Shown here one piece after another: positions 7,721 through 23,845 of a DNA stretch of 24,000 nucleotides (positions are counted from its first letter, which is position 1; the number at the start of each line of letters is the position of its first letter). A program made the position numbers and the translations under genes. The notes below the pieces were generated by a model, which was not told the DNA's origin, made no database searches, and worked only from the letters and a program-made list of their open reading frames with translations. This DNA is from Alphaproteobacteria bacterium (GTDB taxonomy: Bacteria > Pseudomonadota > Alphaproteobacteria > JACZXZ01): NCBI GenBank assembly GCA_035272805.1, contig DATEQI010000597.1, positions 3,045 to 27,044 on the forward strand, written 5' to 3'.

Positions 7721-7879
7721 TCGACCCGCCGGCCGGCATCGTGGCGCCGAGGCGGCGCAACTGCCGCCCGGTGGCTTGTTGTGCCCGCGCGGCCGCGGCA
7801 CCATATTGATCGGGCGCGGTTGCCGCCCGTGGCGTGCGGGCAAGGCGGCGCCGGGAGGACGCGGGCAGGAGTTGACGTC

Positions 7880-8518
7880 ATGAGGTTTCTCAAGCAAGCG
7901 ATTTTGGCAGCGGCCTTGGGACTCCAGCCGCTTGCGGCCGTGGCGGCGACGCCGGCGGCGAGCCTGAGTGCCGCCGACCGGGCGGACTTGGCACGGGTCG
8001 AGCAATACCTCGATTCGATCCGCACCGTCGCCGCGCACTTCATGCAGAGCTCGGACGGCCGCATTGCCCAGGGCAGCTTCTATCTCGAGCGGCCGGGCAA
8101 GATGAGAATCCAATACGATCCGCCCGATCCGCTTTTTATGGTGGCGAGCGGCATCTTTCTTTCCGTTTACGATCCGCAGCTCAAGCAGACCACTTATCTG
8201 CCCATCGACTCGACGCCGGCCTATTTCCTCGTCCAGGACAAGGTGGGATTCGGCGACAATGTCACGGTCGCCAAGGTCGAGCACGGCAGCGACTCGCTCC
8301 GCGTGACGCTCCATGAGAAGGGCCATCCCGACCAAGGCCGCATCACCCTCGTCTTCAGCGACAAGCCGCTCCAGCTGCGCAAATGGACCGTGATCGATCG
8401 CAACGGCAAGGAGATCGACGTGGCCCTGCTCGATGCCCAGTTCGATACCAAGCTCGACCCCAACCTCTTCAAGTTCGTCGATCCCTCGCCGAGCCCGGGT
8501 GCCGGGGGCCAGCGCTAA
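7880..8518 (+). CDS. LolA-like periplasmic lipoprotein carrier, copy 2 (212 aa), tandem paralog
   Basis: ORF 7781..8518. The start is taken at ATG 7880, after GGCAGGAG. By my hand alignment it matches copy 1 at ~134 of ~202 positions (about two thirds), including the signal peptide and an identical TKLDPNLFKFVDPSP tail. Confidence 0.8.
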   Translation: MRFLKQAILAAALGLQPLAAVAATPAASLSAADRADLARVEQYLDSIRTVAAHFMQSSDGRIAQGSFYLERPGKMRIQYDPPDPLFMVASGIFLSVYDPQLKQTTYLPIDSTPAYFLVQDKVGFGDNVTVAKVEHGSDSLRVTLHEKGHPDQGRITLVFSDKPLQLRKWTVIDRNGKEIDVALLDAQFDTKLDPNLFKFVDPSPSPGAGGQR

Positions 8519-9920: not shown

Positions 9921-10949
9921 ATGGCTTTCACGGCTCGCCTTCGTCAGCACGACCGCGCCATTGCCGTGGCGGCGGGCGAGACCATCCTCGCGGCAGCGCT
10001 CGCGGCCGAGGTGCCCTATCCCCACGGTTGCCAGTCCGGCAACTGCGGCGCCTGCAAATCGCGCCTCTATGCCGGCGAGGTCGAGATGATGCCCTATTCC
10101 GCCTATGCCTTGAGCGGGGAGGAGAAGGCTCAGGGGCTCATTCTCGCGTGCCGCGCCATGCCCTGTTCCGACGTCGAGGTGGGCTGGCTCGAGAGCGAGG
10201 AGACCGTGATGCATCCCTTGCGCCTCTTGAGCTGCCGCGTGGCGGCCCTCGACAGCGTCACCCACGACATCAAGCGCGTGCGTCTCGAGGTCCTGTCCGG
10301 CGGGCCGTTCAGCTTTTCCGCCGGGCAATATGCCCGCGTGAGCTTCCGCGGCCAGCCCGCGCGCGACTATTCCATGGCCAATATGCCGACCGAGGCGCCG
10401 CTCGAGTTTCACATCCGCCATCTCTCTGGCGGGCGCTCGTCGCGCTACGTCGCGGAGCGTTTGGCGCTTGGCGACGAGGTAACGGTCGAGGGCCCGTTCG
10501 GCACGTCCTATTGGCGCGCGCGCCACATCGGCCCCATCCTCGCGCTCGCCGGCGGCTCGGGCCTGGCCCCCATCAAGTCGATCGTCGAGACCGCACTCCT
10601 CCACGGCATCACCCAGCCGATCGAGCTTTATTTCGGCGTGCGCGACGAGCGCGACCTCTATCTCGAGGACCATTTCGCCGGCCTAGCCGCGCGCCATCCC
10701 CATCTCAGCTTTGTCCCGGTGCTGAGCCAGCCGAGCCGGGCGACGCCGCGGCGCACCGGCCTGTTGCATGAGGCCGTGCGCGCGGATCACGCCAGCGTCG
10801 CGGGCTGGAAGGCCTATCTCGCGGGGCCGCCGGCCATGGTCGAAGCGGCGAGCGCCATGTTGGCCGAGTGCCACATGGCGCCGGAGGACATCCACGCCGA
10901 CGCCTTCTATACTGAGGCGGAGAAGGCGGCGCTGCCGCTCACGGCCTGA
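9921..10949 (+). CDS. 2Fe-2S ferredoxin / FAD-NAD(P)H oxidoreductase fusion (FNR-like reductase component, 342 aa)
   Basis: ORF 9819..10949, with the start at ATG 9921. The N-terminus has plant-type ferredoxin cysteines (C-QSGN-C-GA-C...C). These are followed by the FNR-type FAD motif RDYSMAN and the NAD(P) motif LAGGSGLAPIKS. The architecture matches oxygenase reductases and CDP-6-deoxy-3,4-glucoseen reductase-like proteins. Confidence 0.8.
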   Translation: MAFTARLRQHDRAIAVAAGETILAAALAAEVPYPHGCQSGNCGACKSRLYAGEVEMMPYSAYALSGEEKAQGLILACRAMPCSDVEVGWLESEETVMHPLRLLSCRVAALDSVTHDIKRVRLEVLSGGPFSFSAGQYARVSFRGQPARDYSMANMPTEAPLEFHIRHLSGGRSSRYVAERLALGDEVTVEGPFGTSYWRARHIGPILALAGGSGLAPIKSIVETALLHGITQPIELYFGVRDERDLYLEDHFAGLAARHPHLSFVPVLSQPSRATPRRTGLLHEAVRADHASVAGWKAYLAGPPAMVEAASAMLAECHMAPEDIHADAFYTEAEKAALPLTA

Positions 10950-10966
10950 GCGATCAAGAGAGGGTC

Positions 10967-11161
10967 ATGACGGTAGAGCGCATCGAGGTCCATACCGCAC
11001 GCGAGCTCATGCAGCAGCCGGAGGAATATCAGGCGGCGGTGCGCAAGATCGTGATCAGCCACGCGATCAACGAGCTCTATGGTGCGGAGGTGTTCGACGA
11101 GCCGGCGATCGCGCATGCGGCCGGCCTCGGCCTCGAGTTGCCGGCAATGGACGCCGCCTGA
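10967..11161 (+). CDS. small hypothetical protein (64 aa), possibly the 5' remnant of a ferritin-like oxygenase partner
   Basis: The ATG lies 18 nt after the reductase stop and is preceded by AGAGAGGG. Third-position GC is high, as in neighbouring genes. The segment IVISHAINELYGAEVFDEP resembles the first metal-ligand helix of ferritin-like di-iron proteins (PaaA/MiaE style). This is recognition by eye only. Confidence 0.4.
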   Translation: MTVERIEVHTARELMQQPEEYQAAVRKIVISHAINELYGAEVFDEPAIAHAAGLGLELPAMDAA

Positions 11162-11177
11162 GTCTCGCGCAGCCTCC

Positions 11178-11969
11178 ATGCGCATCGTAACTTGGAACAT
11201 CAATTCGGTCCGCCTGCGCATCGGCCTCCTCGAGCGGCTCATCGCGGAGAGCGATCCCGACGTCCTGTGCCTTCAGGAGACCAAGGTCCAGGACATGCAA
11301 TTCCCGCTTCTGCCCTTGGTACGGCTCGGCTATGAGCACCAGCTCATCCACGGCATGAAGTCCTACAACGGGGTTGCCATCCTCTCGCGCGTGCCGCTCA
11401 AGGAGACGGGGAAGATGGGCTGGTGCGAGAAGGAGGATTGCCGGCACGCCTTTGCCACGCTGCCGGGTGGCATCGAGCTCCACAACTACTACATTCCCGC
11501 GGGCGGCGATATTCCGGACCCCTCGGCCAATCCCAAGTTCGCCCATAAGCTGCGCTTCCTCTCCGAGATCGTCGCCTGGTGGGAGGGTCGGCAAAAGCCG
11601 CGGCGCAAGGCGATCCTCCTGGGCGACCTCAACATCGCCCCGCTCGAGACGGACGTGTGGTCGCACAAGGCGCTCCTCGACGTGGTGAGTCACACGCCGA
11701 TCGAGGTCGCGTGGCTCGACAAGCTCCAGGCGGCGCATGGCTTCATCGATGCCGTTCGGCGCTTCGTGCCGCCCTCTGAGAAGCTTTACAGCTGGTGGAG
11801 CTATCGCGCGGCCGATTGGCGGGCCGCGGACCGCGGCCGGCGGCTCGACCACATCTGGGTGACGCCGGCATTGGGCGGCCGACTCAAGGCCGCCGCCATC
11901 CTCAAGGACGCGCGCGGCTGGGAGCCGCCCTCCGACCACGCCCCCGTGCTCGTCGAGCTCGCGGAGTGA
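11178..11969 (+). CDS. xthA: exodeoxyribonuclease III (263 aa)
   Basis: ORF 11079..11969, with the start at ATG 11178. MRIVTWNINSVRLR...DVLCLQETK...GDLNIAP...SDHAPV are the EEP-family/Xth hallmark blocks. Confidence 0.9.
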   Translation: MRIVTWNINSVRLRIGLLERLIAESDPDVLCLQETKVQDMQFPLLPLVRLGYEHQLIHGMKSYNGVAILSRVPLKETGKMGWCEKEDCRHAFATLPGGIELHNYYIPAGGDIPDPSANPKFAHKLRFLSEIVAWWEGRQKPRRKAILLGDLNIAPLETDVWSHKALLDVVSHTPIEVAWLDKLQAAHGFIDAVRRFVPPSEKLYSWWSYRAADWRAADRGRRLDHIWVTPALGGRLKAAAILKDARGWEPPSDHAPVLVELAE

Positions 11970-12026
11970 GGGCGGGCGCGAGCGGCGGCGGCGGTGCTGG
12001 ACAATCGGCCCCGGTCTATGTTATGT

Positions 12027-12063
12027 GTTACGTTACTCGTAACAGCCACGGCATAGTGCCGTG
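12027..12063 (+). promoter_or_regulatory. two inverted repeats in the higBA promoter region (candidate HigA operators)
   Basis: GTTACG-ttact-CGTAAC spans 12027-12043. CACGGCA-tag-TGCCGTG spans 12047-12063, and its right arm contains the higB GTG start at 12061. The local sequence is AT-richer (TATGTTATGTGTTACG). Confidence 0.3.
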
Positions 12064-12342
12064 ATCAAGAGTTTTGCCGACAGCGACACGGCGGCACTCT
12101 ATGCCGGGCGTGAGGTGCGGCGATTTCGCGGCTATCGCATTCAGGCCGAGCGGCGTTTGGCGATCCTGCGAAACGCCAAGAGACTCGGCGATCTTGCCGG
12201 ATTGCGCAGCAACCGTCTCGAAGCGTTATCGGGAGGGCGCGCCGGGCAGTACAGCATCCGGGTGAACAGGCAATACCGGGTCTGCTTTCGCTGGTTCGAC
12301 AATAACGCCTACGATGTGGAGATCGTGGATTACCATCGTTGA
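12061..12342 (+). CDS. higB: HigB toxin (RelE/ParE superfamily, plasmid-maintenance killer type, 93 aa)
   Basis: MIKSFADSDTAALYAGREVRRF...LEALSGGRAGQYSIRVNRQYRVCFRWFDNNAYDVEIVDYH matches the HigB-type pattern (MIKSF..., L.G...G.WS[IV]RVN..[WY]R[IV].F.[WF]....A.DV...DYH). It has a GTG start. Toxin-first gene order is typical of hig loci. Confidence 0.85.
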   Translation: MIKSFADSDTAALYAGREVRRFRGYRIQAERRLAILRNAKRLGDLAGLRSNRLEALSGGRAGQYSIRVNRQYRVCFRWFDNNAYDVEIVDYHR

Positions 12343-12393
12343 ATCCGTTCGGCCATCGGCCCCGGGGACTATGTCGGCAGCAATGGGGAAGCC

Positions 12394-12729
12394 ATGACGA
12401 GCAAGAAAAAGGCGACGACGAGCTCCGCGCGGGAACCGGTCTTCGCAATGCGGCCGGTGCATCCGGGCGAGATTTTGCGCGATGAGATGGCCGAGCTGGA
12501 ACTTACGGCCAGGGCCCTCGGCCGCGCCCTCGATATCCCGGCCAACCGCGTGACGCAAATTCTCAAGGGGCAGCGCGCCGTGACGGCGGATACCGCGTTG
12601 CGGCTCGGCCGGTATTTCCGGACGTCGCCCGATTTCTGGCTCGGCCTGCAGAAGGATTACGAGCTGCGCCGGGCTGCCGACGAAGTGGGTGCCGCGATCG
12701 CGGCGAAAGTCCGTCCGCGCGCCGCTTGA
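12394..12729 (+). CDS. higA: HigA antitoxin (XRE-family HTH, 111 aa; alternative start at ATG 12448)
   Basis: PVHPGEILRDEMAELELTARALGRALDIPANRVTQILKGQRAVTADTALRLGRYFRTSPDFWLGLQKDYEL is the canonical HigA/VapI HTH core. It lies immediately downstream of higB. Confidence 0.85.
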   Translation: MTSKKKATTSSAREPVFAMRPVHPGEILRDEMAELELTARALGRALDIPANRVTQILKGQRAVTADTALRLGRYFRTSPDFWLGLQKDYELRRAADEVGAAIAAKVRPRAA

Positions 12730-13062
12730 GCAGCCGCTCGCCTGCTTTCAGCCGCGTCTTCCGGCCGTCGCGCGTGCAATGTTCGATCAGCCCGCGAATC
12801 GTGCGGGTGACGCCGGGCCGGCCCGCGGCGCCCATTCGGCGATGCGCTCGCGCACCGGATTGACGACCGCCAGCTCGACCCATTCGCCGCGTGCGCCGAA
12901 ATCCGCCCCATCGGCTCGAGCATTCGGATCGCGGTAATAATAGCCGGCTCGCCGCCGACCGGAGACGGTGACCGTGGCTGCCCCTTCCTCGATGAGCCCA
13001 TGGGACGGGGGCGGCTAGACGGGCGAATTGGGGATGGCAGTGGGGATCGCGAAGTCGCTCAT
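12730..13062 (-). pseudogene. decayed coding remnant (in-frame TAG plus at least one frameshift), function unknown
   Basis: ATG at 13062-13060 overlaps (ATGA) the stop of the 67-aa ORF upstream of it. It reads MSDFAIPTAIPNSPV, then TAG (13017-13015), then PPPSHGLIEEGAATVTVSGRRRAGYYYRDPNARADGADFGARGEWVELAVVNPVRERIAEW..., ending at TGA 12789-12787. Protein-like sequence then continues in another frame (GVTRTIRGLIEHCTRDGRKTRLKAGERLLK) and runs into the 3' end of higA. I recognise no family. Confidence 0.3.
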
Positions 13063-13262
13063 CCGCGTTTCGTTGCCCTTGATCGAGCTTCTTTCGTATC
13101 GGAATGAAATTTATTGCGGGGCGTCAGGCCATGCTGATCCAACGCGAACGCCACCTTCCGTTCCCGGTTCGAAATTTTGCGATGGCCTTCGAACCGCTGT
13201 GCCGTCTCGTCGAGGCTTCTGACGATTACATCCACCATTTTCTTGTCCGTAAGCCGTGTCAT
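13059..13262 (-). CDS. small hypothetical protein (67 aa), first gene of a decayed bicistron
   Basis: MTRLTDKKMVDVIVRSLDETAQRFEGHRKISNRERKVAFALDQHGLTPRNKFH... sits in a patch of locally lower GC (13030-13260). Its stop overlaps the next ATG (ATGA), as in TA-type pairs. I recognise no family. Confidence 0.35.
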   Translation of the reverse strand: MTRLTDKKMVDVIVRSLDETAQRFEGHRKISNRERKVAFALDQHGLTPRNKFHSDTKEARSRATKRG

Positions 13263-13379
13263 CCTATAGCCTCTTCGATCGGCGCCCGGCGCCCGTGCTC
13301 ATACACCACGGGTGGCACCGGATCGCGGCGAGTGCGCATCCCGATGGGGAATGCTAGGATCGCTGCCGAGGAGTTTCGC

Positions 13380-13634
13380 ATGGACGACAAGGTTAACGTG
13401 ACCATTCCGGTCGAACCCGAGGCTGCGGCGGCGCTTGCGGACGCGCGCAATCGCGAGGCAGTCGGTCGGCTGGTCAGCCGCGTGCTCCGGCCGCAGGCAG
13501 GCCCGAGCCCACTCGCGCGAGCCATCGCCGAGATGAAGGCTGATGCGCGGGCAGCCGGCTTGGCCGATGCCGACATCGATGCCGAGCTTGCGGCGTACAA
13601 TGCCGAGCGGCGCAAACCCACCGCAACCGATTGA
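13380..13634 (+). CDS. small antitoxin-like protein (84 aa), apparently orphan
   Basis: ORF 13104..13634, with the likely start at ATG 13380 after GAGGAG. MDDKVNVTIPVEPEAAAALADARNREAVGRLVSRVL...ADADIDAELAAYNAERRK resembles the small acidic-tailed antitoxins that pair with PIN toxins in Rhizobiales-type genomes. This is recognition by eye, not verified. Confidence 0.45.
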   Translation: MDDKVNVTIPVEPEAAAALADARNREAVGRLVSRVLRPQAGPSPLARAIAEMKADARAAGLADADIDAELAAYNAERRKPTATD

Positions 13635-13680
13635 TCGTCTTCGACGCCGCCGCGCCCCTTGAGCGCCGCCGCTGCTCCGC

Positions 13681-14169
13681 TCACTCCACGCGATACATGA
13701 AATAGCGCCCGGGCTCGAGCTCGCCGGGAAGCTCGAGCTCGCGCCATGCCGGGTGCGGCATGGGCTGGTCGCCGAGCACGACCCCGCCCGCTGCCATGAG
13801 CGGGGCGAGGAGCGGGGCAATCTCGGCGGCGAGCGCCCGGCTCGCCTCCGGGCTGTGCGAGCCGATGTCGCAGTGGGCGAGGGCCGCCTTGGCGCCGAGG
13901 TGCTTAAGTGCGCTCGGCAGCGTGTCGCGAAAGTCGCCTTGAATGAAATGCCCGGCGTCGGGGCGCGAGCTCGGGTGTGCCGCGAGCTCGCGGTCGAAGA
14001 CGAAGATCTCGCGGCCCCCGAGGCGCTCGCGCAAATGGTCGTAGGTGCGGCCGTTGCCGAGCCCGAGCTCGAGGACCGGGCCCGGAAGGGCTGCGATGAG
14101 CTTGGCCGCGTGGTCGATCGTGGCGCGTTGGGCGAGGAGGCGCCGGATGAAGCTGTCGAGCCGGCTCAA
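13681..14169 (-). CDS. small class-I SAM-dependent methyltransferase-like protein (162 aa)
   Basis: LELGLGNGRTYDHL (GxGxG SAM motif I), followed by an acidic FVFDRE (motif II-like). The size and sequence are reminiscent of the short stand-alone 'Methyltransf_17'-type family (from memory). Its TTG start overlaps the upstream stop (TTGA). Confidence 0.6.
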   Translation of the reverse strand: MSRLDSFIRRLLAQRATIDHAAKLIAALPGPVLELGLGNGRTYDHLRERLGGREIFVFDRELAAHPSSRPDAGHFIQGDFRDTLPSALKHLGAKAALAHCDIGSHSPEASRALAAEIAPLLAPLMAAGGVVLGDQPMPHPAWRELELPGELEPGRYFMYRVE

Positions 14170-14624
14170 TGGTGCTCCGCGTGATCGACCGCGTCGCGCA
14201 ATTGATGCGTGGTGCGCTCGAGGCGGTCGGCGAGCACGCGCATGATCTCGATCCCCATCTGGGGGAATTCGGTGATCAGCTTGAAGAAGAGCTCCTTCGA
14301 GATGCGCAAGGTGACGAGCTCGCTTTTCGCCTTCACGGTCGCGGTGCGCGGCACATCGCAGAGAATCGCGATTTCGCCCACGATATCATTGCGCCCGAGC
14401 TTGGCGACCACGAGCGGCCCCGCCGGTGTGTCGACGACCACATCGGCCTCGCCGGAGAGGATGATGTAGGCGGCGTCTCCCGGGTCGCCCTGATGAAAGA
14501 GCACCTGGTCGGCATGGTAGGTGAGGCGTTCCGAGGTGAAGGCGAGCAGCTTGAGCTTCGAGGCCTCGATTTTCCCGAAGAGCGGGATGTTGCGCAGGAT
14601 GTCGACTTCTTCCTTGAGACTCAT
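14166..14624 (-). CDS. stand-alone cyclic-nucleotide-binding (CAP effector-type) domain protein (152 aa), no output domain
   Basis: LFGKIEASKLKLLAF...FHQGDPGDAAYIILSGEADVVV...GRNDIVGEIAILCDVPRTATVKA contains the phosphate-binding cassette G-E-[IL]-A...R-[ST]-A with the cNMP-contacting Arg retained. There is no HTH or other effector domain. A GGAGG Shine-Dalgarno lies 6 nt upstream, and the ATG is 18 nt after the ABC gene stop. Confidence 0.85.
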   Translation of the reverse strand: MSLKEEVDILRNIPLFGKIEASKLKLLAFTSERLTYHADQVLFHQGDPGDAAYIILSGEADVVVDTPAGPLVVAKLGRNDIVGEIAILCDVPRTATVKAKSELVTLRISKELFFKLITEFPQMGIEIMRVLADRLERTTHQLRDAVDHAEHH

Positions 14625-14642: not shown

Positions 14643-17309
14643 CTATTCCGCCGCCACCATCTCGTGGAACGCCGAGCCTGCGCGGTTGAGCTCGGCGACC
14701 GCACCCTCCTCCACCAGCTTTCCGCTGCGCATGACGAGGACGCGGTCGAAATTGCGCGCGAGCTCGGCACGGTTGAGCACGGCGACAAGGCCGCGGCCCT
14801 TGAACTCCGCGCGCAGGTTCTCGAGAACCCTGCTTTGGGAGCTGCTGTCGAGGGCCGCCAGCGCATCATTGAGGATCAGGAGGTCGGGCCGCTTCAACAC
14901 CACGCGCGCGATCGCGAGCTTCTGCCGCTGCGCGCCGGAGAGGCGGCTGCCGGCGCTTCCGATGTTGTAGCCGAGGCCGGCCTCCATCACCGAGCCCCGC
15001 AGCTCAAGCGTCTCGAGCACTTCCTGGATGAGCGCACCTACCCGCTGCGCGCCTTGAGGCTGGCCGTAGGCGACCTTGCCGAAGAGCACGTTGTCCTGCA
15101 GCGTGGCCGCGGCATTGTAGCTCTCGAAATCGAAGAACGCGACCGCCCCCCGCAACTCCGGCGGCAGCCCGTCGCGGAAGACGTCGCGCGCCTCGAGGAT
15201 GCGCTGCTTGAAATTCGCGTCGATCAGATCGAGGCGATGACGGGCCGGAATGAGCTTGAAGGGCAGGTTCAAGAGACGGTTCTTGTCCTCCTCCTTGAGC
15301 TGGTCGAGGCCGCTCGTGCCCACGCGCGTGAGCAAGGCCTGGAACTCGGGAAGCTCGTCGGCGCTGATGAAGGAGTATTGCTCGAAGAGCTCGCTCCCCG
15401 GCGGCAGACCGGCGAAGAGCTCGACCATGGTCGTGGCTGCCTCGCGCCCCATGCCCAGGATGAGCCCCGTGAGGCCGGTCTTGTCGAGGACCTGGCGCAC
15501 GTAAGCGTTCCCGGCGAGGCGCTCCATGTCGAAGGCGTCGCCCACGGGCGTGCCGAAGAGGAGATTCTCGGCGACGCTCGCGTTGTCGTTGTAGCGTTTT
15601 CGGTCGAAGAGCTCGACGAGTTGCGCGAAACTCGGCTCCGCGAGCCGCTCGCGCAAGGCGTGGCGCGCCTCGAGGACGCTCTTGGCGAGGTCGGGCCGCT
15701 TCGCGGGATCGATGACGCTGAGCAGGCCCACGTGATAGACGTCGTCCTCCATCTCGGTGAGTTTGAGGATCTCGAGGGCGCGTTCCCTGAGCTCGGCCTT
15801 CGAGCCGGCTCCTGCCGCGGCATAATCGATCCACTCGGCTGCGACGTCGAGTGGCGGGTTCCCGGTACGCACGGCCTCCGCCATCAACGCTTGGCGCTCG
15901 GGCGAAGACGGGCCTTCCGATAACGGCTTGTGCTTGAGCGCGTAAAAGAGATTGCTGTCTATGGTGCCGGAGAAGAGATAGCTGTGCTGAGCGACGAAGC
16001 CGACGCGCCGTCCACTGATCGCCTCGGGCCAATCGGCGATATTCTCCCCCCCGATCGTGATCTTGCCGCCGCTCGGCGGCAGGAGCCGGGCCAGCATCAG
16101 GCCGAGCTCCTCCTTGCCGCTGGCACCCGTGCCGACGACGGCGATGTGGTTGTCGAGCGCGAAGCGCGCCGAGACGTTGTCGACGATCTTGAGTCGGCCG
16201 TCCTCGCTGAAGCTGACGTTGGCGAGCTGCACTTCGCCCTTGAGCGGCTCGATCCTCTCGGGCTCGACGAGCTGCCCCTGCTCGTCGCTCGTGCCGGGCG
16301 GGGCGAACTGCTGAACCACCTGCTCGTACATGATCCGCGCGTTGTCCTTGCTCTGGTAGAAGGTGAGCAGCTCGCCCCAGGGGCCCGCGAGATCCTTTTG
16401 CGCGCCGATGACCGCGACGAGCGCTCCGATATCGAGCTGTCCCTGCAAGACCAGATAGCCCCCGATCGTGAAGAAGAAGAACGGCGTCACCTTGTCGGCC
16501 GTGTTGTTGATGTATTTGACGAGGAACTTGAGGATGAAAATCCTGAGGCGGGTATAGTATTGCGTATAGAGACGGTCGGAGAAGTCGGCGCGCTCGAAAC
16601 GGGAGGTGTCGTTGGCGTGAATCTCAAGCGCTCCGCCCACCGCCTCGCCGAGGCGTTCGGAGAGCCCGCGTTGCGTGCGGATGCGCCGCTTGTTGTGCTC
16701 GTTGATGCGCTTCTGCATTTTCGGGATGAGATAGCCCTGCCCGGGATAAAGCGCCACCGCCGCCAGCCCGAGCCAGGGGTTCTGCATCAGGATGAAATAG
16801 AGCGGCACCAGCAGCAGCCCGCCTTGAAATATCGGCGTCGCAACGGCATCGCCGACGAATTCGCCCAAGGTCACGGTCTCGGCGATGAGCATCGCGATGA
16901 TCTCGCCCACGGAGATCTTCTTGAAGTGGGGGAGGGGAAAACAGAGGATGCGGCTGTAGAGCTGATAGCGCATGCGGCGCAGCATGCGCTCCCCGAGGCG
17001 GCCCTTGTAGACATTGATGAAGTACTTGAAGCCGCCGTTCACGATGGTCAGCGCCAGGAACACGACGGAGAGCAGCATGAGCCAGTTGACCGCGCCGAAA
17101 TCCATGCCGAAAAGGTGGTTCGCCTTCACGGAGGCGAGCCCGCCCCCGCGGTAGGCCTGGTTCGCCGAGTCCTTGATGTGATTGATGATCAGCTTGGGCA
17201 GGTCATAGGAGTAGTAGAGAAACGGGAACGAGACTCCCGTGACCATGAGCAAGACGATTTGCTCCTTAAAGCTATACTTTAGGATAAACCGGTAAATATT
17301 TTTTTCCAC
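14643..17309 (-). CDS. ABC exporter-like fused permease/NBD protein with degenerate NBD motifs and a large NBD insertion (888 aa from GTG 17309; 906 aa if GTG 17363)
   Basis: The N-terminal ~340 aa has a type-I exporter TMD pattern. The NBD carries GTGASGKE (Walker A), VAQ (Q-loop), LSGAQRQKLAIAR (signature), LLILNDALAALD (Walker B/D-loop) and VAVLNRA (H-loop position). I prefer the start VEKNIYRFILKYS at GTG 17309, which has GGGGA 9 nt upstream and matches the usual N-termini of this transporter class. Confidence 0.85.
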   Translation of the reverse strand: MEKNIYRFILKYSFKEQIVLLMVTGVSFPFLYYSYDLPKLIINHIKDSANQAYRGGGLASVKANHLFGMDFGAVNWLMLLSVVFLALTIVNGGFKYFINVYKGRLGERMLRRMRYQLYSRILCFPLPHFKKISVGEIIAMLIAETVTLGEFVGDAVATPIFQGGLLLVPLYFILMQNPWLGLAAVALYPGQGYLIPKMQKRINEHNKRRIRTQRGLSERLGEAVGGALEIHANDTSRFERADFSDRLYTQYYTRLRIFILKFLVKYINNTADKVTPFFFFTIGGYLVLQGQLDIGALVAVIGAQKDLAGPWGELLTFYQSKDNARIMYEQVVQQFAPPGTSDEQGQLVEPERIEPLKGEVQLANVSFSEDGRLKIVDNVSARFALDNHIAVVGTGASGKEELGLMLARLLPPSGGKITIGGENIADWPEAISGRRVGFVAQHSYLFSGTIDSNLFYALKHKPLSEGPSSPERQALMAEAVRTGNPPLDVAAEWIDYAAAGAGSKAELRERALEILKLTEMEDDVYHVGLLSVIDPAKRPDLAKSVLEARHALRERLAEPSFAQLVELFDRKRYNDNASVAENLLFGTPVGDAFDMERLAGNAYVRQVLDKTGLTGLILGMGREAATTMVELFAGLPPGSELFEQYSFISADELPEFQALLTRVGTSGLDQLKEEDKNRLLNLPFKLIPARHRLDLIDANFKQRILEARDVFRDGLPPELRGAVAFFDFESYNAAATLQDNVLFGKVAYGQPQGAQRVGALIQEVLETLELRGSVMEAGLGYNIGSAGSRLSGAQRQKLAIARVVLKRPDLLILNDALAALDSSSQSRVLENLRAEFKGRGLVAVLNRAELARNFDRVLVMRSGKLVEEGAVAELNRAGSAFHEMVAAE

Positions 17310-17563
17310 AGTCTTTTTCCCCTGTCCCCAGCCGCCTCGAAGGGGTGCGCGGCGGCCCAGCACCTTAGCCTAGTGCGAGCGGGCCGTAAATGCCGCCCCG
17401 GGCGGTCGGTGCCGAATGGGAGGCATGCGGCCCGTTTCGCAGCACCTGCGGCGAATGACGGCAGGATCGGCCGGCGGGGCCACCTGCTGGCGCGGCGCCA
17501 CAAGAAGCGCGCTCGCCGCAACAGGAACGCAGATTGGCGTCACCCCTTCGTCACAAGACTCGC

Positions 17564-17623: not shown

Positions 17624-18844
17624 ATGTCGAGCCGCAAAGGCACGCGCGTTCTGATCTACAGCCACGACACCTTCGGCCTCGGACATTTGAGGCGCTGTCG
17701 GGCCATCGCGCATTCCCTTGTCGAGCACCACAAGGACATGTCGGTGCTGATCCTCTCGGGCTCGCCGATCATCGGCAGCTTCGATTTTCGCGCGCGCGTC
17801 GATTTCGTGCGCGTGCCCGGGGTCATCAAGCTCCACAACGGCGAATACACCTCCTTGAATCTCCATATCGACATCGGCGAGATGCTTGCCATGCGCTCGT
17901 CGATCATCCGCCACACGGCCGACACCTTCGATCCGGATCTCTTTCTCGTGGACAAGGAGCCGCTCGGCCTGCGCGGCGAGATCGAGGACACGCTGTCCCT
18001 CTTGAAGGCCCGCGGCGTGCCGATCGTCCTCGGCCTGCGCGACGTGATGGACGAGCCCGCGCTGCTCGCGCCCGAATGGGAGCGCAAGAAGGTGCTGCCG
18101 GCGCTCGCCGACTTCTATGACGAGATCTGGATCTACGGCTTGCCGCAGGTGTGCGATCCGCTCGAGGGGATCGAGATTCCCGACTCCGTTCGGCGTCGCA
18201 CGGTCTACACCGGCTATCTCGAGCGCAAGGTGCCGACGCATCTCACCCACATGCCGGCACGGCCGCGCCTGGAAGTGCCGTATCTGCTCGTGACGCCGGG
18301 AGGCGGGGGGGATGGCGACGCGCTCATCGACTGGGTGCTGCGCGCCTACGAGCAGTATCCCACGATGCCCCACCCGGCGCTCATGGTGCTCGGTCCTTTC
18401 ATGCAGCCGGAGCGCCAAGGCGAATTCATGGTGCGCGCGAGCCAGCTCAAGAACGTCGAGATGATGACCTTCGATGCGCGTATGGAGACGCTTGTCGATG
18501 GCGCGTTGGGGGTCGTCGCCATGGGGGGATACAACACCTTCTGCGAGATCCTCTCCTTCGACAAGCCGGCACTCATCGTGCCCCGCACCGCACCCCGGCT
18601 CGAGCAATACATCCGCGCCTCGCGCGCCCAGGAGCTCGGCCTGGTCTCGCTCCTGGTCGACCAGTACGCGCGCGATCCCCACATGATGGCGACCGCACTG
18701 CGCCAGCTGCCGCAGCAGAAGCGGCCCTCGGACGTGGTCGTGCCGGGGCTGCTCGACGGTCTCAGCAACGTGAACCGCCTGGTCGAGCGGCATCTCAGGC
18801 CGCGCCATGTCCATCCGGTGCCGGTCGCCACGGGTCACCCGTAG
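17624..18844 (+). CDS. GT-B fold glycosyltransferase, MurG/GT28-C-like 'predicted glycosyl transferase' (COG4671-type), 406 aa
   Basis: ORF 17534..18844, with the start at ATG 17624. The N-terminus reads RVLIYSHDTFGLGHLRRCRAIA. The C-terminal nucleotide-sugar motif reads VVAMGGYNTFCEILSFDKPALIVPR. Confidence 0.75.
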   Translation: MSSRKGTRVLIYSHDTFGLGHLRRCRAIAHSLVEHHKDMSVLILSGSPIIGSFDFRARVDFVRVPGVIKLHNGEYTSLNLHIDIGEMLAMRSSIIRHTADTFDPDLFLVDKEPLGLRGEIEDTLSLLKARGVPIVLGLRDVMDEPALLAPEWERKKVLPALADFYDEIWIYGLPQVCDPLEGIEIPDSVRRRTVYTGYLERKVPTHLTHMPARPRLEVPYLLVTPGGGGDGDALIDWVLRAYEQYPTMPHPALMVLGPFMQPERQGEFMVRASQLKNVEMMTFDARMETLVDGALGVVAMGGYNTFCEILSFDKPALIVPRTAPRLEQYIRASRAQELGLVSLLVDQYARDPHMMATALRQLPQQKRPSDVVVPGLLDGLSNVNRLVERHLRPRHVHPVPVATGHP

Positions 18845-18848
18845 AGCC

Positions 18849-20183
18849 GTGGTGCCCACCGTCGCAGTCATCCTCAAGGGCTATCCGCGCCTTTCCGAGA
18901 CCTTCATCGCGCAGGAGCTCAGGGAGCTCGAGCGCCGCGGGCTCTCGCTCCACATCGTCTCGCTGCGCCATCCGACCGACGCGGTCCTCCATCCCATCCA
19001 TCGCGAGATCGCGGCCCCGGTGCTCTACGTGCCCGAGTATCTGCACGACGAGCCGCAGCGCGTGCTGAGCGCGTGGCGGGCGCTCAGGGGATCGAGGGGC
19101 TACCGGCGCGCCCGCGCGGCCTGGCTCGCCGATCTCGCCCGCGATCCCACGCCCAACCGCGTGCGCCGCTTCGGCCAGGCGCTCGTGCTTGCGCACGAGC
19201 TGCCGCCTCGGGTCGAGCGGCTTCACGCTCACTTCCTCCACACGCCTGCCTCGGTCGCGCGCTACACGAGCCTCATGACCGGCCTCAAGTGGAGCTGCTC
19301 TGCGCACGCCAAGGACATCTGGACGATACCCGCGTGGGAGAAGCGCGAGAAGCTCGCGAGCCTCGATTGGCTCGTCACCTGCACGCGCGCCGGCGCCGAG
19401 CATCTCAAGGCGCTCAGCAGCGAGCCGCGCAAGATCGAGCTCGTCTATCACGGACTCGATCCGGCGCGCTTCCCGCCGCGCGAGGCGGCACCGTCGCCGC
19501 GCGATGGACGCGATCCCTCAGCACCGGTCGTGATCCTCTCGGTCGGCCGGCTCGTCGCCAAGAAAGGCTACGGCGATTTGCTCGCTGCCTTGGCACGGCT
19601 TCCCAAGGCGCTCCACTGGCGCTTTATCCATGTGGGGGGCGGACCGCTCGCGCAGTCGCTCGCGCGCGGGGCCGCGAGATGCGGGATCGCCGCGCGCGTC
19701 GCCTGGCTCGGGCCGCTCTCCCAGGAGGCCGTGCTGGCGCAATATCGCAGCGCCGATCTCTTCGCGCTCGCCTGCCGCGTGGCGCCCGACGGCGATCGGG
19801 ACGGCCTGCCCAACGTGCTTCTCGAGGCGCAGAGCCAGGGACTCGCCTGTCTTTCGACCACGGCGGGCGGCGTTCCCGAGCTGATCGAAGCGGGGCGGTC
19901 CGGCCTGCTCGCCCAACCGGGCGACGTGCCGGCACTCGCAGCACACTTGGCACGGCTTATTCAGGAGCCCGCGTTGCGCGCGCAGCTCGCTCGCGCAGGT
20001 GCGGCGCGGGTGCGCCAGAGTTTCAGCTTCCAGCCTGGCATCGCGCGGCTTGCCGAGAAGTTCGGCCTTTCCGCGGGCGGGGAGGCGGATGGCAAGCTGC
20101 CCGCCGCTGCCGCCGAGACGAGCACGGAAGCTGCCGCCAGCGGGCCGCTACCGTCATGCGCATCGCGTTCTATGCGCCGCTGA
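18849..20183 (+). CDS. GT4-family glycosyltransferase (WcaL-like N-terminus), ~444 aa
   Basis: ORF 18807..20183. I prefer GTG 18849, 4 nt after the upstream stop, because homologs of this type begin a few residues before the VAVILKGYPRLSETFI block. ATG 18807 would give a 38-nt overlap. The GT4 E-x7-E region is DGLPNVLLEAQSQGLACLSTTAGGVPELI. Confidence 0.75.
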   Translation: MVPTVAVILKGYPRLSETFIAQELRELERRGLSLHIVSLRHPTDAVLHPIHREIAAPVLYVPEYLHDEPQRVLSAWRALRGSRGYRRARAAWLADLARDPTPNRVRRFGQALVLAHELPPRVERLHAHFLHTPASVARYTSLMTGLKWSCSAHAKDIWTIPAWEKREKLASLDWLVTCTRAGAEHLKALSSEPRKIELVYHGLDPARFPPREAAPSPRDGRDPSAPVVILSVGRLVAKKGYGDLLAALARLPKALHWRFIHVGGGPLAQSLARGAARCGIAARVAWLGPLSQEAVLAQYRSADLFALACRVAPDGDRDGLPNVLLEAQSQGLACLSTTAGGVPELIEAGRSGLLAQPGDVPALAAHLARLIQEPALRAQLARAGAARVRQSFSFQPGIARLAEKFGLSAGGEADGKLPAAAAETSTEAAASGPLPSCASRSMRR

Positions 20184-21295
20184 AGCCGCCGGACCATCCG
20201 GTGCCCTCGGGAGACCGGCGCGTCGGCCGTGCGCTCATCGCAGCCCTCGGCCTCGCCGGACACGAGGTGAGGCTTGCCTCGCGCCTGCGCAGTTGGGACG
20301 GTGCGGGAGATGCGGCCCGGCAGCGCCGTATCGAGCGCCTGGGCGGGCGGCTCGCCTCCCGCCTCATTCGCCGATACGGCAGCGAGCCTCGGCTGCGGCC
20401 GGAACTCTGGCTCACCTACCATCTCTATCACAAGGCGCCGGACTGGCTTGGGCCCGCGGTTGCGAGCGAGCTCGCGATACCCTATGTCGTCGTCGAGGCG
20501 TCATCGGCGCGCAAGCAGGCGAGCGGCTGCTGGGCAATGGGGCATGCCGCGAGTGCCGCCGCGATCGCGCGCGCGGACGCCCTCATCAATCTCAACGGCG
20601 ACGATCGCGAGGGTTTGCTTCAGCTGGTCGGCGAGCCCGCGCGCATCAGCCACTTGGCCCCGTTCATCGAGACGGCGGCCTATGCCCGGGCCAAACCCGC
20701 GCGCACAAGGCTCGCCGAGCGCTATGGGCTCGACTCAGCACGGCCTTGGCTCCTCGCGGTTGCGATGATGCGGGAGGGGGCGAAGCTCGCCTCCTATCGC
20801 GTGCTGGCCGAGGCGCTGCGCCTCATCGACGGCCTCGACTGGCAGCTCGTCATCGTCGGCGACGGCCCGGCGCGCGGCGAGGTCGAGGCGCTGCTGGCCC
20901 CCCTCGGCGAGGGCCGCGCGCGCTTGCTTGGCGCGCTCGCGGCGGAGGCGCTGCCCCCGCTCTATGCCAGCGCCGATCTTTATCTCTGGCCCGCCATCCA
21001 CGAGGCCTTCGGCATGGCGTTCCTCGAGGCCCAGGCCGCCGGGCTGCCGGTGGTCGCGGGGCGCGAGCGCGGCGTGCCGGAGGTCGTGCGCGAGGGCGAG
21101 GCGGGCCTGCTTGTGCCACCGAGCGACGCCCGCGCCTTCGCCGCCGCGGTCGCAACGCTCCTTGCCGATCCCGGCCGCCGCCGTGCCATGGGTGCCCGCG
21201 CCCGCGCGATTGCCTCTGCCGAGGCCGACATCGGCGCCGCAGCGAGGCGGCTGGATGCGATCCTGCGGCAGGTCCTCGCGGAGCGGCGGGCATGA
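20156..21295 (+). CDS. GT4-family glycosyltransferase (379 aa)
   Basis: This is the in-frame ATG 20156 of ORF 19073..21295. Everything upstream of it in that ORF is a shadow of the preceding gene. It begins MRIAFYAPLKPPDHPVPSGDRR and has the GT4 motif HEAFGMAFLEAQAAGLPVVAGRERGVPEVV. It overlaps the upstream gene by 28 nt. Confidence 0.8.
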   Translation: MRIAFYAPLKPPDHPVPSGDRRVGRALIAALGLAGHEVRLASRLRSWDGAGDAARQRRIERLGGRLASRLIRRYGSEPRLRPELWLTYHLYHKAPDWLGPAVASELAIPYVVVEASSARKQASGCWAMGHAASAAAIARADALINLNGDDREGLLQLVGEPARISHLAPFIETAAYARAKPARTRLAERYGLDSARPWLLAVAMMREGAKLASYRVLAEALRLIDGLDWQLVIVGDGPARGEVEALLAPLGEGRARLLGALAAEALPPLYASADLYLWPAIHEAFGMAFLEAQAAGLPVVAGRERGVPEVVREGEAGLLVPPSDARAFAAAVATLLADPGRRRAMGARARAIASAEADIGAAARRLDAILRQVLAERRA

Positions 21296-21882
21296 CGCAG
21301 CTGGCGCTCATCCGCCATGCCGCGAGCGCGTGGAGCGAGCGCGGGCTCATCCAGGGCCGCGCCGACCCCTCGCTCAGCCCCGGCGGTGCCGCCGCTGCCG
21401 CGGCCTGGCGCGTGCCGGCCGCACTCGCCGCCTTCGACTGGGTGGCGAGCCCGCTTGCGCGCGCCTCTGAGACCGCCCGTCTTCTCCTCGGCCGCGAGGT
21501 GGCCGTCGAGCCCTCGCTCATCGAAATGGCATGGGGCGATTGGGAGGGCGAGCATCTTGCCGAGCTTCGCGCCAAGCTGGGCGCCGCGATCGCCGAGAAC
21601 GAAGGGCGCGGGCTCGACTTCCGTCCGCCGGGCGGGGAGAGCCCGCGCGATGTCCAGCGCCGTCTCGAGCCGTGGCTCGCGCGCGTGGCGCTCAGGGCCC
21701 GGCCCACGGCGGCCGTGACGCATAAGGGCGTCATCCGCGCCGTCGTCGGTTTGGCGACCGGGTGGGACTTTCTCGGCAAGCCGCCGCTGCGGCTCGCCCC
21801 CGCCACAGCCCAGCTCTTCGAGCTTGACGAAGGCGGGCGGCCGCGCCTTCTCTCAGCCAACATCCCGCTCGCCGCACCGTGA
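21292..21882 (+). CDS. histidine phosphatase superfamily (phosphoglycerate-mutase-like) protein (196 aa)
   Basis: MTQLALIRHAASAWSERGLIQGRAD carries an RH[GA] catalytic motif. Further blocks are WGDWEG...GESP...VTHKGVIRA (second His). Its ATG overlaps the upstream TGA (ATGA). Confidence 0.8.
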   Translation: MTQLALIRHAASAWSERGLIQGRADPSLSPGGAAAAAAWRVPAALAAFDWVASPLARASETARLLLGREVAVEPSLIEMAWGDWEGEHLAELRAKLGAAIAENEGRGLDFRPPGGESPRDVQRRLEPWLARVALRARPTAAVTHKGVIRAVVGLATGWDFLGKPPLRLAPATAQLFELDEGGRPRLLSANIPLAAP

Positions 21883-23048
21883 GCCGCCTCCTCCTCTACG
21901 TCCAGAGCCTCCTCGGCGTCGGCCATCTGGCGCGCGCCGCCCTCCTTGCGCGCGCCTTCGCCGCGGCCGGCTGGGAGGTCGACCTCGTCTCCGGAGGCAT
22001 GCCCGTTGGAGAAGTGAGCGCGGGTGCGGCCCGCCTCGTTCAGCTGCCCCCCGCGCGCAGCCGAGACGAGGCCTTCAGCGGGCTCGTGGACGAGGCGGGC
22101 AAGGCGGTCGACGCGGCTTGGCGCCAGGCGCGCCGCGAGCGTCTCCTAGCACTCTTCGCCGAGCGCCGGCCGGACGTCCTGATCCTCGAGATGTTTCCCT
22201 TCGGCCGCCGGCAGATGCGCTTCGAGCTCCTCCCGCTCCTCGCTGCGGCGAGGGCCGCGGCGCGCCCTCCGCTCGTCGTCTCCTCCGCGCGCGACGTCGT
22301 GCAAGGCCGGCGCAAGCCGGGCCGGGCGGAGGAGGCGTTGGCCCTCCTCGAGGAGGCTTTCGACCTCGTCCTTGTGCACGGCGATCGGCACCTCGTGCGC
22401 TTCGAGGAGAGCTTTCCGCTCGCAGCCGAGCTCGGTGCCCGGCTGCGCTACACCGGCTATATCGCCCCGCCTCAAGTACCCCGGGGCCGCGCCGGTGAGG
22501 TGGGCTGGGACGAAGTGGTGGTCTCGGCCGGGGGTGGGGCTGTTGGCGCAGCACTGCTTGAAACGGCATTGGCCGCGCGGCCGCTCAGCAAGCTCAAGGC
22601 TCGCCGCTGGCGCCTTCTTGCCGGCCGCAACCTGCCTCAAGGTGCGTTTGCCGCCCTTGCCGCCCAGGCGCCGCCCGATGTTGTCGTCGAGCGCGCGCGC
22701 CCGGATTTTCAAGGGCTCTTGGCCAATTGCCGCGTGTCGATTTCCCAGGCCGGCTATAATACGGTGATGGACATTGCGAGTGCTGACGCGCGGGCCGTGC
22801 TCGTGCCCTTCGTCGGGCTCGGCGAGACGGAGCAGACGCTCCGTGCCGAGAAGCTCGCGGCGCGCGGGCTCGTGCAAGTCGTCCCCGAGCGCCAACTGAC
22901 GGCGGCACGTCTCGCTGCCGCGGTCGATGCGGCCGAGGTGATGCCGGCCCCCCGCTTCGCCGCTTTCGACATGTCGGGTGCTGCGACCAGCGTGCGCATC
23001 GTGAGCGAGGTATTGTCCCGCCGCCCGGCCGCGGGGGTGCGCGCATGA
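21879..23048 (+). CDS. second MurG/COG4671-like GT-B glycosyltransferase (389 aa), paralog of 17624..18844
   Basis: LLYVQSLLGVGHLARAALLA parallels LIYSHDTFGLGHLRRCRAIA in the first copy. The C-terminal VSISQAGYNTVMDIASADARAVLVPF parallels the GGYNT block. Its GTG start overlaps the upstream TGA (GTGA). Confidence 0.7.
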   Translation: MSRLLLYVQSLLGVGHLARAALLARAFAAAGWEVDLVSGGMPVGEVSAGAARLVQLPPARSRDEAFSGLVDEAGKAVDAAWRQARRERLLALFAERRPDVLILEMFPFGRRQMRFELLPLLAAARAAARPPLVVSSARDVVQGRRKPGRAEEALALLEEAFDLVLVHGDRHLVRFEESFPLAAELGARLRYTGYIAPPQVPRGRAGEVGWDEVVVSAGGGAVGAALLETALAARPLSKLKARRWRLLAGRNLPQGAFAALAAQAPPDVVVERARPDFQGLLANCRVSISQAGYNTVMDIASADARAVLVPFVGLGETEQTLRAEKLAARGLVQVVPERQLTAARLAAAVDAAEVMPAPRFAAFDMSGAATSVRIVSEVLSRRPAAGVRA

Positions 23049-23845
23049 GCAGCTGGGCAGCACTTGAGCGCGAGCTCGACGCCTGGCAGGCGGCGGGCCG
23101 GGTCGCGAGCCTGTGGTGGCGCGATGACGACGCGGTGGACACCACGCCGGCGCTCGAGCGGCTGCTCGCGACCGCAGGCACCTATGGCATCCCGTTGGCG
23201 CTCGCCGTGGTGCCGCAGCCGGCCCGCGCGAGCCTCGCGGACGCGATCGGCGATGCGCCGGCCGTGACTCCGCTGCCACACGGCTACGCGCATGTGAGCC
23301 ATGCCCCCGCGGGCGCCAAGAGCGGCGAGCTCGGGCCTGCGCGGGCGGTTGCGGTGAACCTCCGTGAAGCAGCACTCGGCTGGCAGCGCCTTCAGGCGCT
23401 CTTCGGCAGCCGGGCCTTCCCCGTGCTCGTGCCGCCGTGGAATCGCATCGATCCGGCGCTCATCCCGCACTTGCCCGGACTCGGCTTTTGCGGCCTCTCG
23501 GCTTGGGGGGCGCGCACAGAAGCGCTTCCGGCACCCGGCCTCGTGCAAGCCAATGCCCACCTCGACCTCATCGACTGGCGCGGCAGCCGCGGCTTCGTCG
23601 GCGAGGCGGATGCGCTCGACGAGCTCGCCTCCCATCTCGCGGCGCGCCGTCGCGGCGAGGTGGACCCGGACGAGCCGAGCGGCCTGCTCACGCACCACCT
23701 CGCTCATGACGCCGGCGCTTGGCGCTTCATCGAGACGCTCTTCGCGCGGACCCTGGGCCACTCTGCCGTCCGCTGGCTCGACGCGGAGGAGATCTTCCGG
23801 CCTTCGCAAGCGAGGCCGCGCGCCGCCGCCCCCGACGGTCCATGA
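23045..23845 (+). CDS. polysaccharide deacetylase (NodB/CE4-like) family protein (266 aa)
   Basis: LWWRDDDAVD is an Asp-Asp motif-1-like block and HGYAHVSH is a His-x-x-x-His metal motif. LVPPWNRI and LLTHHLAHD are also present. Its start overlaps the upstream stop (ATGA). Confidence 0.6.
   Translation: MSSWAALERELDAWQAAGRVASLWWRDDDAVDTTPALERLLATAGTYGIPLALAVVPQPARASLADAIGDAPAVTPLPHGYAHVSHAPAGAKSGELGPARAVAVNLREAALGWQRLQALFGSRAFPVLVPPWNRIDPALIPHLPGLGFCGLSAWGARTEALPAPGLVQANAHLDLIDWRGSRGFVGEADALDELASHLAARRRGEVDPDEPSGLLTHHLAHDAGAWRFIETLFARTLGHSAVRWLDAEEIFRPSQARPRAAAPDGP

Follow-up and report, generated by a model that had tools for sequence, protein, structure and literature searches.

Can a membrane protein that has the complete fold of an ATP-binding cassette (ABC) exporter, yet carries substitutions at the catalytic positions of its nucleotide-binding domain (NBD), still work as an ATP-driven pump, and what else might this domain do? 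The question is raised by a gene in a 24,000-nt window (the whole stretch of DNA analysed here, positions 3,045 to 27,044 of contig DATEQI010000597.1 in assembly GCA_035272805.1, from an Alphaproteobacteria bacterium), which encodes an ABC-exporter-like protein and is followed by a gene for a small cyclic-nucleotide-binding (CNB) protein. We lean slightly towards the reading that the ABC-like protein is a hydrolysis-deficient exporter or facilitator of the ABC fold, in which the remodelled NBD would serve as a regulatory platform for a sensor of cyclic nucleotide monophosphates (cNMPs). Three lines of evidence bear on this reading: the state of the ATP site in the query and across its family, a large insert between Q-loop and signature, and the linkage to the CNB protein. 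Residue numbers refer to an 888-aa product; adding 18 converts them to the numbering of the 906-aa open reading frame (ORF).

Fold and ATP-site motifs

Pfam assigned ABC_membrane (PF00664, 2e-16) and ABC_tran (PF00005, 1.6e-14) to the ABC-like protein, the latter in two stretches parted by the insert, and alignment of a family profile placed its NBD on the NBDs of solved exporters. The AlphaFold2 (AF2) model has a mean pLDDT of 84.6 over the full length and near 90 for NBD and insert. Foldseek searches with this model matched TmrAB, HlyB, MsbA, TM287/288 and NdvA, with a superposition TM-score on type IV exporters of ~0.62, normalised to the target. In NCBIfam, 167 ABC models match the protein, all far under their curated cut-offs: the best, MsbA, reaches 189 of the 602 bits required, the glucan exporter PRK13657 153 of 733 and HlyB 164 of 726. 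Each of these models aligns in two stretches, the first ending near residue 477 and the second starting at 732-800 (906-aa numbering). The product is a type IV ABC-exporter-fold protein and, by fold, a member of the ABC superfamily, yet it fails the catalytic definition.

Profile alignment to solved exporters pairs GTGASGKE with GSSGCGKS, LLILND with ILLLDE, VAVLNRA with IVIAHRL and LSGAQRQ with LSGGQKQ, which bears out the motif assignments of the initial annotation and the coordinates it gave for Walker A and Walker B (Table 1). The A-loop Tyr of the solved exporters falls in a gap, and the A-loop position of the query clade is Glu or Asp. The Q-loop Gln, the LSGAQ signature and the AALD D-loop had been described as retained, and they are kept in the query; the close clade shares LSGAQRQ and AALD, which become eroded in distant members. 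Pfam, NCBIfam and profile alignment to solved exporters detected no canonical Walker A, Walker B or H motif elsewhere in the protein, so that the initial interpretation withstands this check. Judged from its sequence, the query does not have the Walker A GxxGxGK[ST], the Walker B hhhhDE, the H-loop His and the A-loop aromatic residue of a competent ATPase.

Degeneracy of the ATP site across the family

We searched a profile of the insert against 1.84 billion representative sequences and obtained 1247 clusters at 50% identity with E <= 1e-3, 463 of them with E <= 1e-30; members also occur in Rhizobium, Azospirillum and Ruegeria. A published description of this family was not found in the literature, the database names of its members are generic, and neither Pfam nor NCBIfam holds a model specific to the family or to the insert. 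It is a large, undescribed bacterial (proteobacterial) family of ABC-exporter-like proteins.

In the close clade, defined as the 121 relatives at >=50% identity, Walker A reads GxxxSGK[E/D], with Lys in 111 sequences and an acidic residue in 106 (Glu 67, Asp 39). Walker B reads hhhh[N/S][E/Q/D], where Asn (87) or Ser (28) accounts for 115 sequences and the following position is Glu in 87, Gln in 17 and Asp in 16. The H-loop position is His in 88 and Asn in 20, the A-loop aromatic is absent, and the Q-loop Gln occurs in only 52. What these relatives conserve is the non-canonical pattern K-[E/D] ... [N/S]-[E/Q/D]. A strict charge-swap covariation of Walker A Glu/Asp with Walker B Asn/Ser was considered and is unsupported, mixed combinations being found.

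The whole-family alignment (MAFFT) comprises 76 full-length sequences, the query and 75 representatives of at least 800 aa. Walker A Lys is present in 32 of the 76, with A, G, Q or R in its place in over half of the sequences, the Q-loop Gln is found in 7, Walker B Asp and the catalytic Glu in 21 each and the H-loop His in 5, and the signature has Ser in 32 and its second Gly in 5, counts in which motif columns of the most divergent representatives may be misplaced. A full canonical K-S/T-D-E-H set occurs in none of the 76, and this result, together with the pattern conserved among the 121 close relatives, leaves the initial reading of the site standing. Of the positions conserved to >=85%, the transmembrane domain holds 27, insert units 2 and 3 together 23 and the NBD core only 6. 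On this evidence, degeneracy of the catalytic site is a family trait and not the decay of a single copy. Because the catalytic residues are essentially unconstrained and the constraint lies in the transmembrane domain and the insert, we conclude that selection acts on these two parts rather than on ATP chemistry.

The Sinorhizobium meliloti homolog (10567-13278 of locus L044) is encoded on pSymB, where NC_003078.1 841,723-844,996 spans the ABC and CNB genes and 841,723-844,434 the ABC homolog by itself, and it is present and intact on this replicon in ~80 strains. Its Walker A reads GGTSGGGE and thus has no Lys at all; its Walker B is FYVFNQ and its H-loop VLANQ. We considered whether this gene is msbA2 (SMb21191) and rejected the identity: the homolog lies at 841.7-845.0 kb of pSymB and the msbA2 operon at ~938 kb (PMC3687685).

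A repeat, probably of the helical subdomain, between Q-loop and signature

The initial annotation described a repeated insertion of ~320 aa. Its count of 349 residues from Q459 to L808 (906-aa numbering) is correct, but the insert itself measures ~290 aa by our profile, since no solved ABC protein has residues that correspond to positions ~464-755 (~292). The region divides into three units, each running from a Q-loop strand towards a signature-type helix (Table 1). Units 2 and 3 (~539-621 versus ~698-778) are clearly homologous, with hhalign probabilities of 97-98.7% and E-values of 3.7e-16 over 45 aa and 2.6e-11 over 80 aa, and share the pattern iLeAR.al..L......VE.FD...YN..AT..(E/D)N(L/I)LFG....yv..VLd..gL...l..G. 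The alignment of unit 1 with unit 3 is co-linear and spans 77 columns between the Q-loop strand and the 'AR' of the signature helix; it pairs GtiDPa.Rp.lA..iL.AR with sRLS.aQRQKlA--iAR. This match is weak (probability 31%, E 5e-4), and short core segments of the comparison reach 79-91%. The three-fold repeat proposed earlier is real, clearly so for units 2 and 3 and with a weaker match for unit 1. Family-invariant positions occur three times, as N453/N582/N740, G457/G586/G744 and R549/R708/R802, and the terminal helix of unit 1, LAKSVLEAR, continues into the beginning of the following segment.

Comparison of the insert profile with a canonical importer NBD placed FD..rYN.NATvaENLLFG best on FQsyalfphlTVfENVaFG, that is, on the Q-loop and the post-Q-loop helix, a match that is weak (E 0.028) and positionally telling. 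The domain models divide in the same region: the canonical Q-loop segment is matched to unit 1 by the MsbA model (residues 89-477) and to unit 3 by the MsbA_rel, CydC, CydD and ECF models (from residues 732-753; all in 906-aa numbering). Neither a Foldseek search of the insert alone against PDB folds (best E 0.6) nor a profile search against PDB sequences gave a match. The insert looks like tandem copies of the helical subdomain, and we read the layout as RecA-core-N, three helical subdomains and RecA-core-C, in which units 1 and 2 bear extra helices and only the last copy retains the signature. Unit 2 is the best-conserved soluble region of the protein.

Linkage to a cyclic-nucleotide-binding protein

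PF00027 (4e-21) is the only Pfam domain in the 152-aa neighbour, whose best solved relatives are the regulatory domains of the cyclic-nucleotide-dependent kinases PKG and PKA. It has no C-terminal helix-turn-helix DNA-binding domain of the kind found in Crp/Fnr transcription factors, and the CRP match covers only the N-terminal 138 of 214 positions. Among 60 family-linked CNBs the phosphate-binding cassette is near-invariant (G in 59, E in 60, R in 59, T/S in 52, A in 56), in sharp contrast to the variable ATP site.

Of the 43 loci, which belong to Alpha-, Beta- and Gammaproteobacteria, 37 have a CNB homolog in the cluster, the six misses being contig ends or flank limits. In S. meliloti, too, it adjoins the ABC-like gene; the neighbour there (UniProt Q92VD3, 154 aa, without a DNA-binding domain) is annotated as 'Crp/Fnr family transcriptional regulator' or 'cAMP-dependent protein kinase'. 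A full-length CNB is fused to the C-terminus in all representatives of >=1000 aa, 21 of the 75 (E 1e-17 to 1e-39), an architecture that Pfam confirmed in the relatives examined. The link to the cNMP-binding neighbour, which the initial annotation had marked for checking, thereby holds. Two of six fused relatives examined adjoin class III cyclases on the same strand: at locus L047 the cyclase gene (13171-14451) and the 3' end of the fusion gene share 7 nt, and at L053 a CHASE2-cyclase gene (3-1718) lies 23 nt ahead of it; one of the two cyclases is GAF-linked and the other CHASE2-linked. At locus L050 an extra stand-alone 145-aa CNB gene (3690-4127) follows the fusion gene. We regard it as well supported, by this synteny and fusion, that the ABC-like protein is coupled physically and functionally to a cNMP sensor; both suggest that the CNB protein docks onto the ABC-like protein and regulates it in response to cNMPs.

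Proposed mechanism and alternatives

We propose that the functional module consists of a presumably homodimeric ABC-fold membrane subunit and a dedicated CNB protein, which neighbours it here and is joined to its C-terminus in other lineages. We infer a homodimer because no second ABC-exporter gene lies within 10 kb on either side at the 43 loci, which is the sole basis for this assignment; the window, too, holds none. The NBD would have lost catalytic competence while its helical subdomain was copied in tandem into three units, each from Q-loop strand to signature-type helix, and the conserved transmembrane domain would still supply the translocation pathway. NBD and helical insert together would then serve as a platform for regulation or gating rather than as a motor. 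The intact P-loop Lys, signature and D-loop of the query clade may still let ATP bind there, and it could be held as a non-hydrolysed 'glue' or structural ligand; ATP binding is unlikely in the rhizobial clade. Cyclic AMP or cyclic GMP on the CNB partner would control opening or activity. The cargo of the query clade would probably be the product of the co-conserved cluster of four glycosyltransferases, a phosphatase and a methyltransferase, which would be an oligosaccharide or glycolipid meant for the envelope; its transport would run downhill or depend on coupling to a process other than ATP hydrolysis. We offer a more specific version tentatively and with less belief: that a CNB-docking pseudo-ATPase NBD with a triplicated helical subdomain has exchanged ATP hydrolysis for cNMP control, so that a facilitator or channel would be gated by cAMP or cGMP and pass envelope glycans or possibly, in the cyclase-linked clades, the cyclic nucleotide itself.

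Several observations weigh against a hydrolysis-deficient, cNMP-regulated protein. The homology of unit 1 to the other units is statistically weak, the family-wide motif counts are exposed to misplaced alignment columns, and the association with glycosyltransferases is clade-specific; because the fused relatives lie in other contexts, the cargo is uncertain. The unusual site is conserved within the query clade (K 111, E/D 106 and N/S 115 of 121), which could reflect a working, unorthodox ATP site in which a Walker A carboxylate takes on the Mg-binding role of Ser/Thr and of the Walker B Asp. The protein would then be an ATP-driven pump after all, in which the Walker A Glu/Asp coordinates Mg2+, Asp833 or Glu is the general base and the CNB protein merely tunes the rate. 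Conservation of GxxxxGK[E/D] and hhhh[N/S][E/Q/D] in the close relatives and the intact P-loop glycines, Lys, signature (LS.AQRQ) and D-loop speak for such a pump. We nevertheless consider it unlikely: all these residues vary across the family, where over half of the sequences have another residue in place of Lys and hardly any has the His, the acidic Walker A residue and the Walker B Asn do not covary strictly, the A-loop aromatic is missing, and in S. meliloti the gene has stayed intact in ~80 pSymB replicons without the Lys.

A canonical partner half-transporter may also be encoded elsewhere. In that case the ABC-like protein would be the degenerate half of a heterodimer, its signature completing a consensus site on the distant partner as in TM287/288, TmrAB and BmrCD, and the combination seen in the query clade, degenerate Walker A, B and H motifs with a good signature and D-loop, is typical of the degenerate subunits of heterodimeric exporters. 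Known heterodimers are, however, encoded by two adjacent genes, no such second gene is found at the 43 loci, and the signature that would serve the partner decays in distant members; a heterodimer thus strikes us as quite improbable. About equally improbable is a non-transporter, a membrane signalling or scaffold protein comparable to SUR that relays cNMP status to glycosyltransferases or cyclases or, in a variant, handles the cyclic nucleotide itself. A decayed ATP site beside a near-invariant CNB cassette would suit this role, as would the relatives that share operons with cyclases and not with glycosyltransferases, but the transmembrane domain holds the most conserved positions and the full exporter fold is kept. 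That the gene is a pseudogene, a lone decaying copy of an MsbA-like exporter, is suggested by several catalytic substitutions in one protein; the frame of 888 aa is open, hundreds of orthologs share the architecture, many insert positions are invariant and the synteny is conserved. We rejected decay on these grounds and give it practically no weight, in agreement with the initial view of an intact gene.

Relation to known systems

MsbA, the cyclic-glucan exporter NdvA/ChvA, HlyB and TmrAB show the same order of a six-helix ABC_membrane domain followed by an NBD, and MsbA and NdvA likewise lie beside genes for glycan or lipid biosynthesis. The query differs from these exporters by its replaced Walker A Ser/Thr, Walker B Asp and Glu, H-loop His and A-loop aromatic, by its ~290-aa helical-subdomain insert and obligatory CNB partner, and by scores far below the curated cut-offs. 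We know of no characterised ABC exporter that works without at least one consensus ATP site. Non-catalytic sites with substituted catalytic Glu and H-loop His also occur in TM287/288, TmrAB, BmrCD, LmrCD and CFTR/SUR, but these proteins keep one consensus site, formed from two adjacent genes or within one polypeptide, whereas the query has no nearby partner gene and, as a homodimer, would possess two degenerate sites. CFTR is under cAMP control through protein kinase A (PKA); in the query, control would instead be exerted by direct binding of the cNMP to the CNB protein and not by phosphorylation. Degenerate sites of ABC exporters are known, and they stand always beside one consensus site (PMC7544095).

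HetC of Nostoc PCC 7120, a peptidase-containing ABC transporter (PCAT), resembles the present system in joining an ABC exporter to a PF00027-type domain. This N-terminal cNMP-type domain is required for function and bound ppGpp, GTP and GDP but not cAMP in vitro, and the catalytic Glu E970 is essential (PMC10986499). The HetC domain lies beside a C39 peptidase and HetC is a canonical ATPase-dependent PCAT, whereas the present CNB, whether C-terminal or stand-alone, has a canonical cassette, the ATPase site has decayed and a helical insert is present. A precedent for energising the fold without ATP hydrolysis is provided by SbmA/BacA, SbmA-like peptide transporters (SLiPT) with a type IV-like transmembrane domain that use the proton gradient (PMC12912959). 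The likeness is one of working mode only: SbmA/BacA have lost the NBD wholly, possess a glutamate ladder for protons and import peptides, whereas the query has kept and remodelled its NBD and no such ladder was identified in it.

If drifting catalytic residues, a conserved transmembrane domain and novel helical insert, and a constantly attached or adjacent cNMP sensor belong together, as seems to be the case here, they would represent a new use of the ABC exporter fold across more than 1,000 clusters and give bacterial signalling a cAMP/cGMP effector that acts outside transcription. An envelope glycoconjugate not yet characterised, the product of the conserved glycosyltransferase cluster, may come to light through the family as well. 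Since S. meliloti, Rhizobium, Azospirillum and Ruegeria are genetically tractable, the idea is directly testable.

Gene boundaries and genomic context

The open reading frame list of the window contains an ORF of 906 aa on the minus strand (14643-17363). The closest relatives measure 867-890 aa and a database entry with 100% identity 888 aa, a Shine-Dalgarno-like GGGGA precedes GTG 17309, and the 21 residues that an ATG start (M40, 906-aa numbering) would drop are conserved across the family. Because the homologs are ~888 aa long, GGGGA lies upstream and these N-terminal 21 aa are conserved, the likely product is the 888-aa protein starting at GTG 17309. For near-identical genes from metagenome-assembled genomes, the NCBI annotation gives an 867-aa product from ATG, which leaves out window positions 17247-17309; GTG 17309 fits better. 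In the 314-bp divergent intergenic region we found no sigma-70-like site, and inspection by eye for a CRP site there revealed nothing convincing.

Table 1. Features of the locus, with positions in the window and residues of the 888-aa product
Feature	Position	Strand	Remarks
ABC-exporter-like gene	14643-17309	-	888 aa from GTG 17309 (likely start); mechanical ORF reaches 17363
Transmembrane domain	16305-17309	-	aa 1-335; six long helices, type IV exporter fold; from Pfam, AF2, Foldseek and conservation
Walker A GTGASGKE	16110-16133	-	Lys kept; Glu in place of the Mg-coordinating Ser/Thr
Helical-subdomain unit 1	15696-16004	-	aa 436-538; canonical Q-loop strand GFVAQ, SYLFSGTIDSNLFYAL, then divergent helical part
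Helical-subdomain unit 2	15219-15695	-	aa 539-697; VELFD...YNDNASVAENLLFG and family-specific block FEQYSFIS..LPEFQ...LPFKLIPARHRL
Helical-subdomain unit 3	14895-15218	-	aa 698-805; VAFFD...YNAAATLQDNVLFG, runs into the LSGAQRQ signature helix
Signature	14928-14942	-	in the LSGAQRQ helix, continuous with unit 3
Walker B LLILNDA	14862-14882	-	Asp replaced by Asn, catalytic Glu by Asp; D-loop AALD follows
H-loop position VAVLNRA	14766-14786	-	His replaced by Asn
Stand-alone CNB protein	14166-14624	-	152 aa, without DNA-binding domain; cassette GEIAILCDVPRTAT; starts 18 nt past the ABC stop codon
Methyltransf_17 S-adenosylmethionine (SAM) methyltransferase	13681-14169	-	start overlaps the CNB stop codon
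Divergent conserved cluster	17624-23845	+	four glycosyltransferases, phosphatase and a protein of unknown function
GT28-like glycosyltransferase	17624-18844	+	
GT4 glycosyltransferase	18807-20183	+	
Second GT4 glycosyltransferase	about 20150-21295	+	
His_Phos_1 phosphatase	about 21292-21882	+	
Second GT28-like glycosyltransferase	21879-23048	+	
Conserved 266-aa ORF	23045-23845	+	no Pfam or NCBIfam match; 41-87% identity in 26 of 43 loci

Glycosyltransferase homologs lie within 10 kb at 40 of the 43 loci, rearranged gene orders included. The S. meliloti locus has a GT4, a hypothetical protein and class I and FkbM methyltransferases. Fused relatives neighbour instead a Sulfatase-family protein or an HGSNAT-type membrane protein, both of which we take to be glycan-modifying enzymes, the Sulfatase family including OpgB, LtaS and EptA. 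A polyprenyl-phosphate priming enzyme, Wzx or Wzy was not seen in the gene context. From these neighbours it is reasonable to suppose that the query clade exports a (methylated) oligosaccharide or glycolipid to the envelope.

An Opp/Dpp-type importer lies beside the glycosyltransferase cluster at distant alphaproteobacterial loci and in S. meliloti (1-1171 of locus L003 and 1-5906 of L044); its ATPase at L003 is a fused double ATPase with oligo_HPY domains, and the window stops short of the importer position. On the other side of the ABC-like gene, homologous loci follow the order FtsK-LolA-...-Exo_endo_phos-MT17-CNB-ABC-GTs, where MT17 and GTs stand for the methyltransferase and glycosyltransferases. 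The window has two tandem LolA-family genes (7067-7720 and 7781-8518, plus strand) downstream of ftsK (4293-6791), and related loci show one. A HigB-like toxin gene (12061-12342, plus strand) and a helix-turn-helix (HTH) antitoxin gene (12394-12729, plus strand) lie between the Exo_endo_phos and methyltransferase genes; apart from this pair, which is not among the called genes of loci L001 and L003, the region keeps the synteny of homologous loci. A 176-aa ORF without a family match (13104-13634, plus strand) fills the gap from the toxin-antitoxin pair to the methyltransferase gene, at about the position where some related loci carry a second Methyltransf_17 copy.

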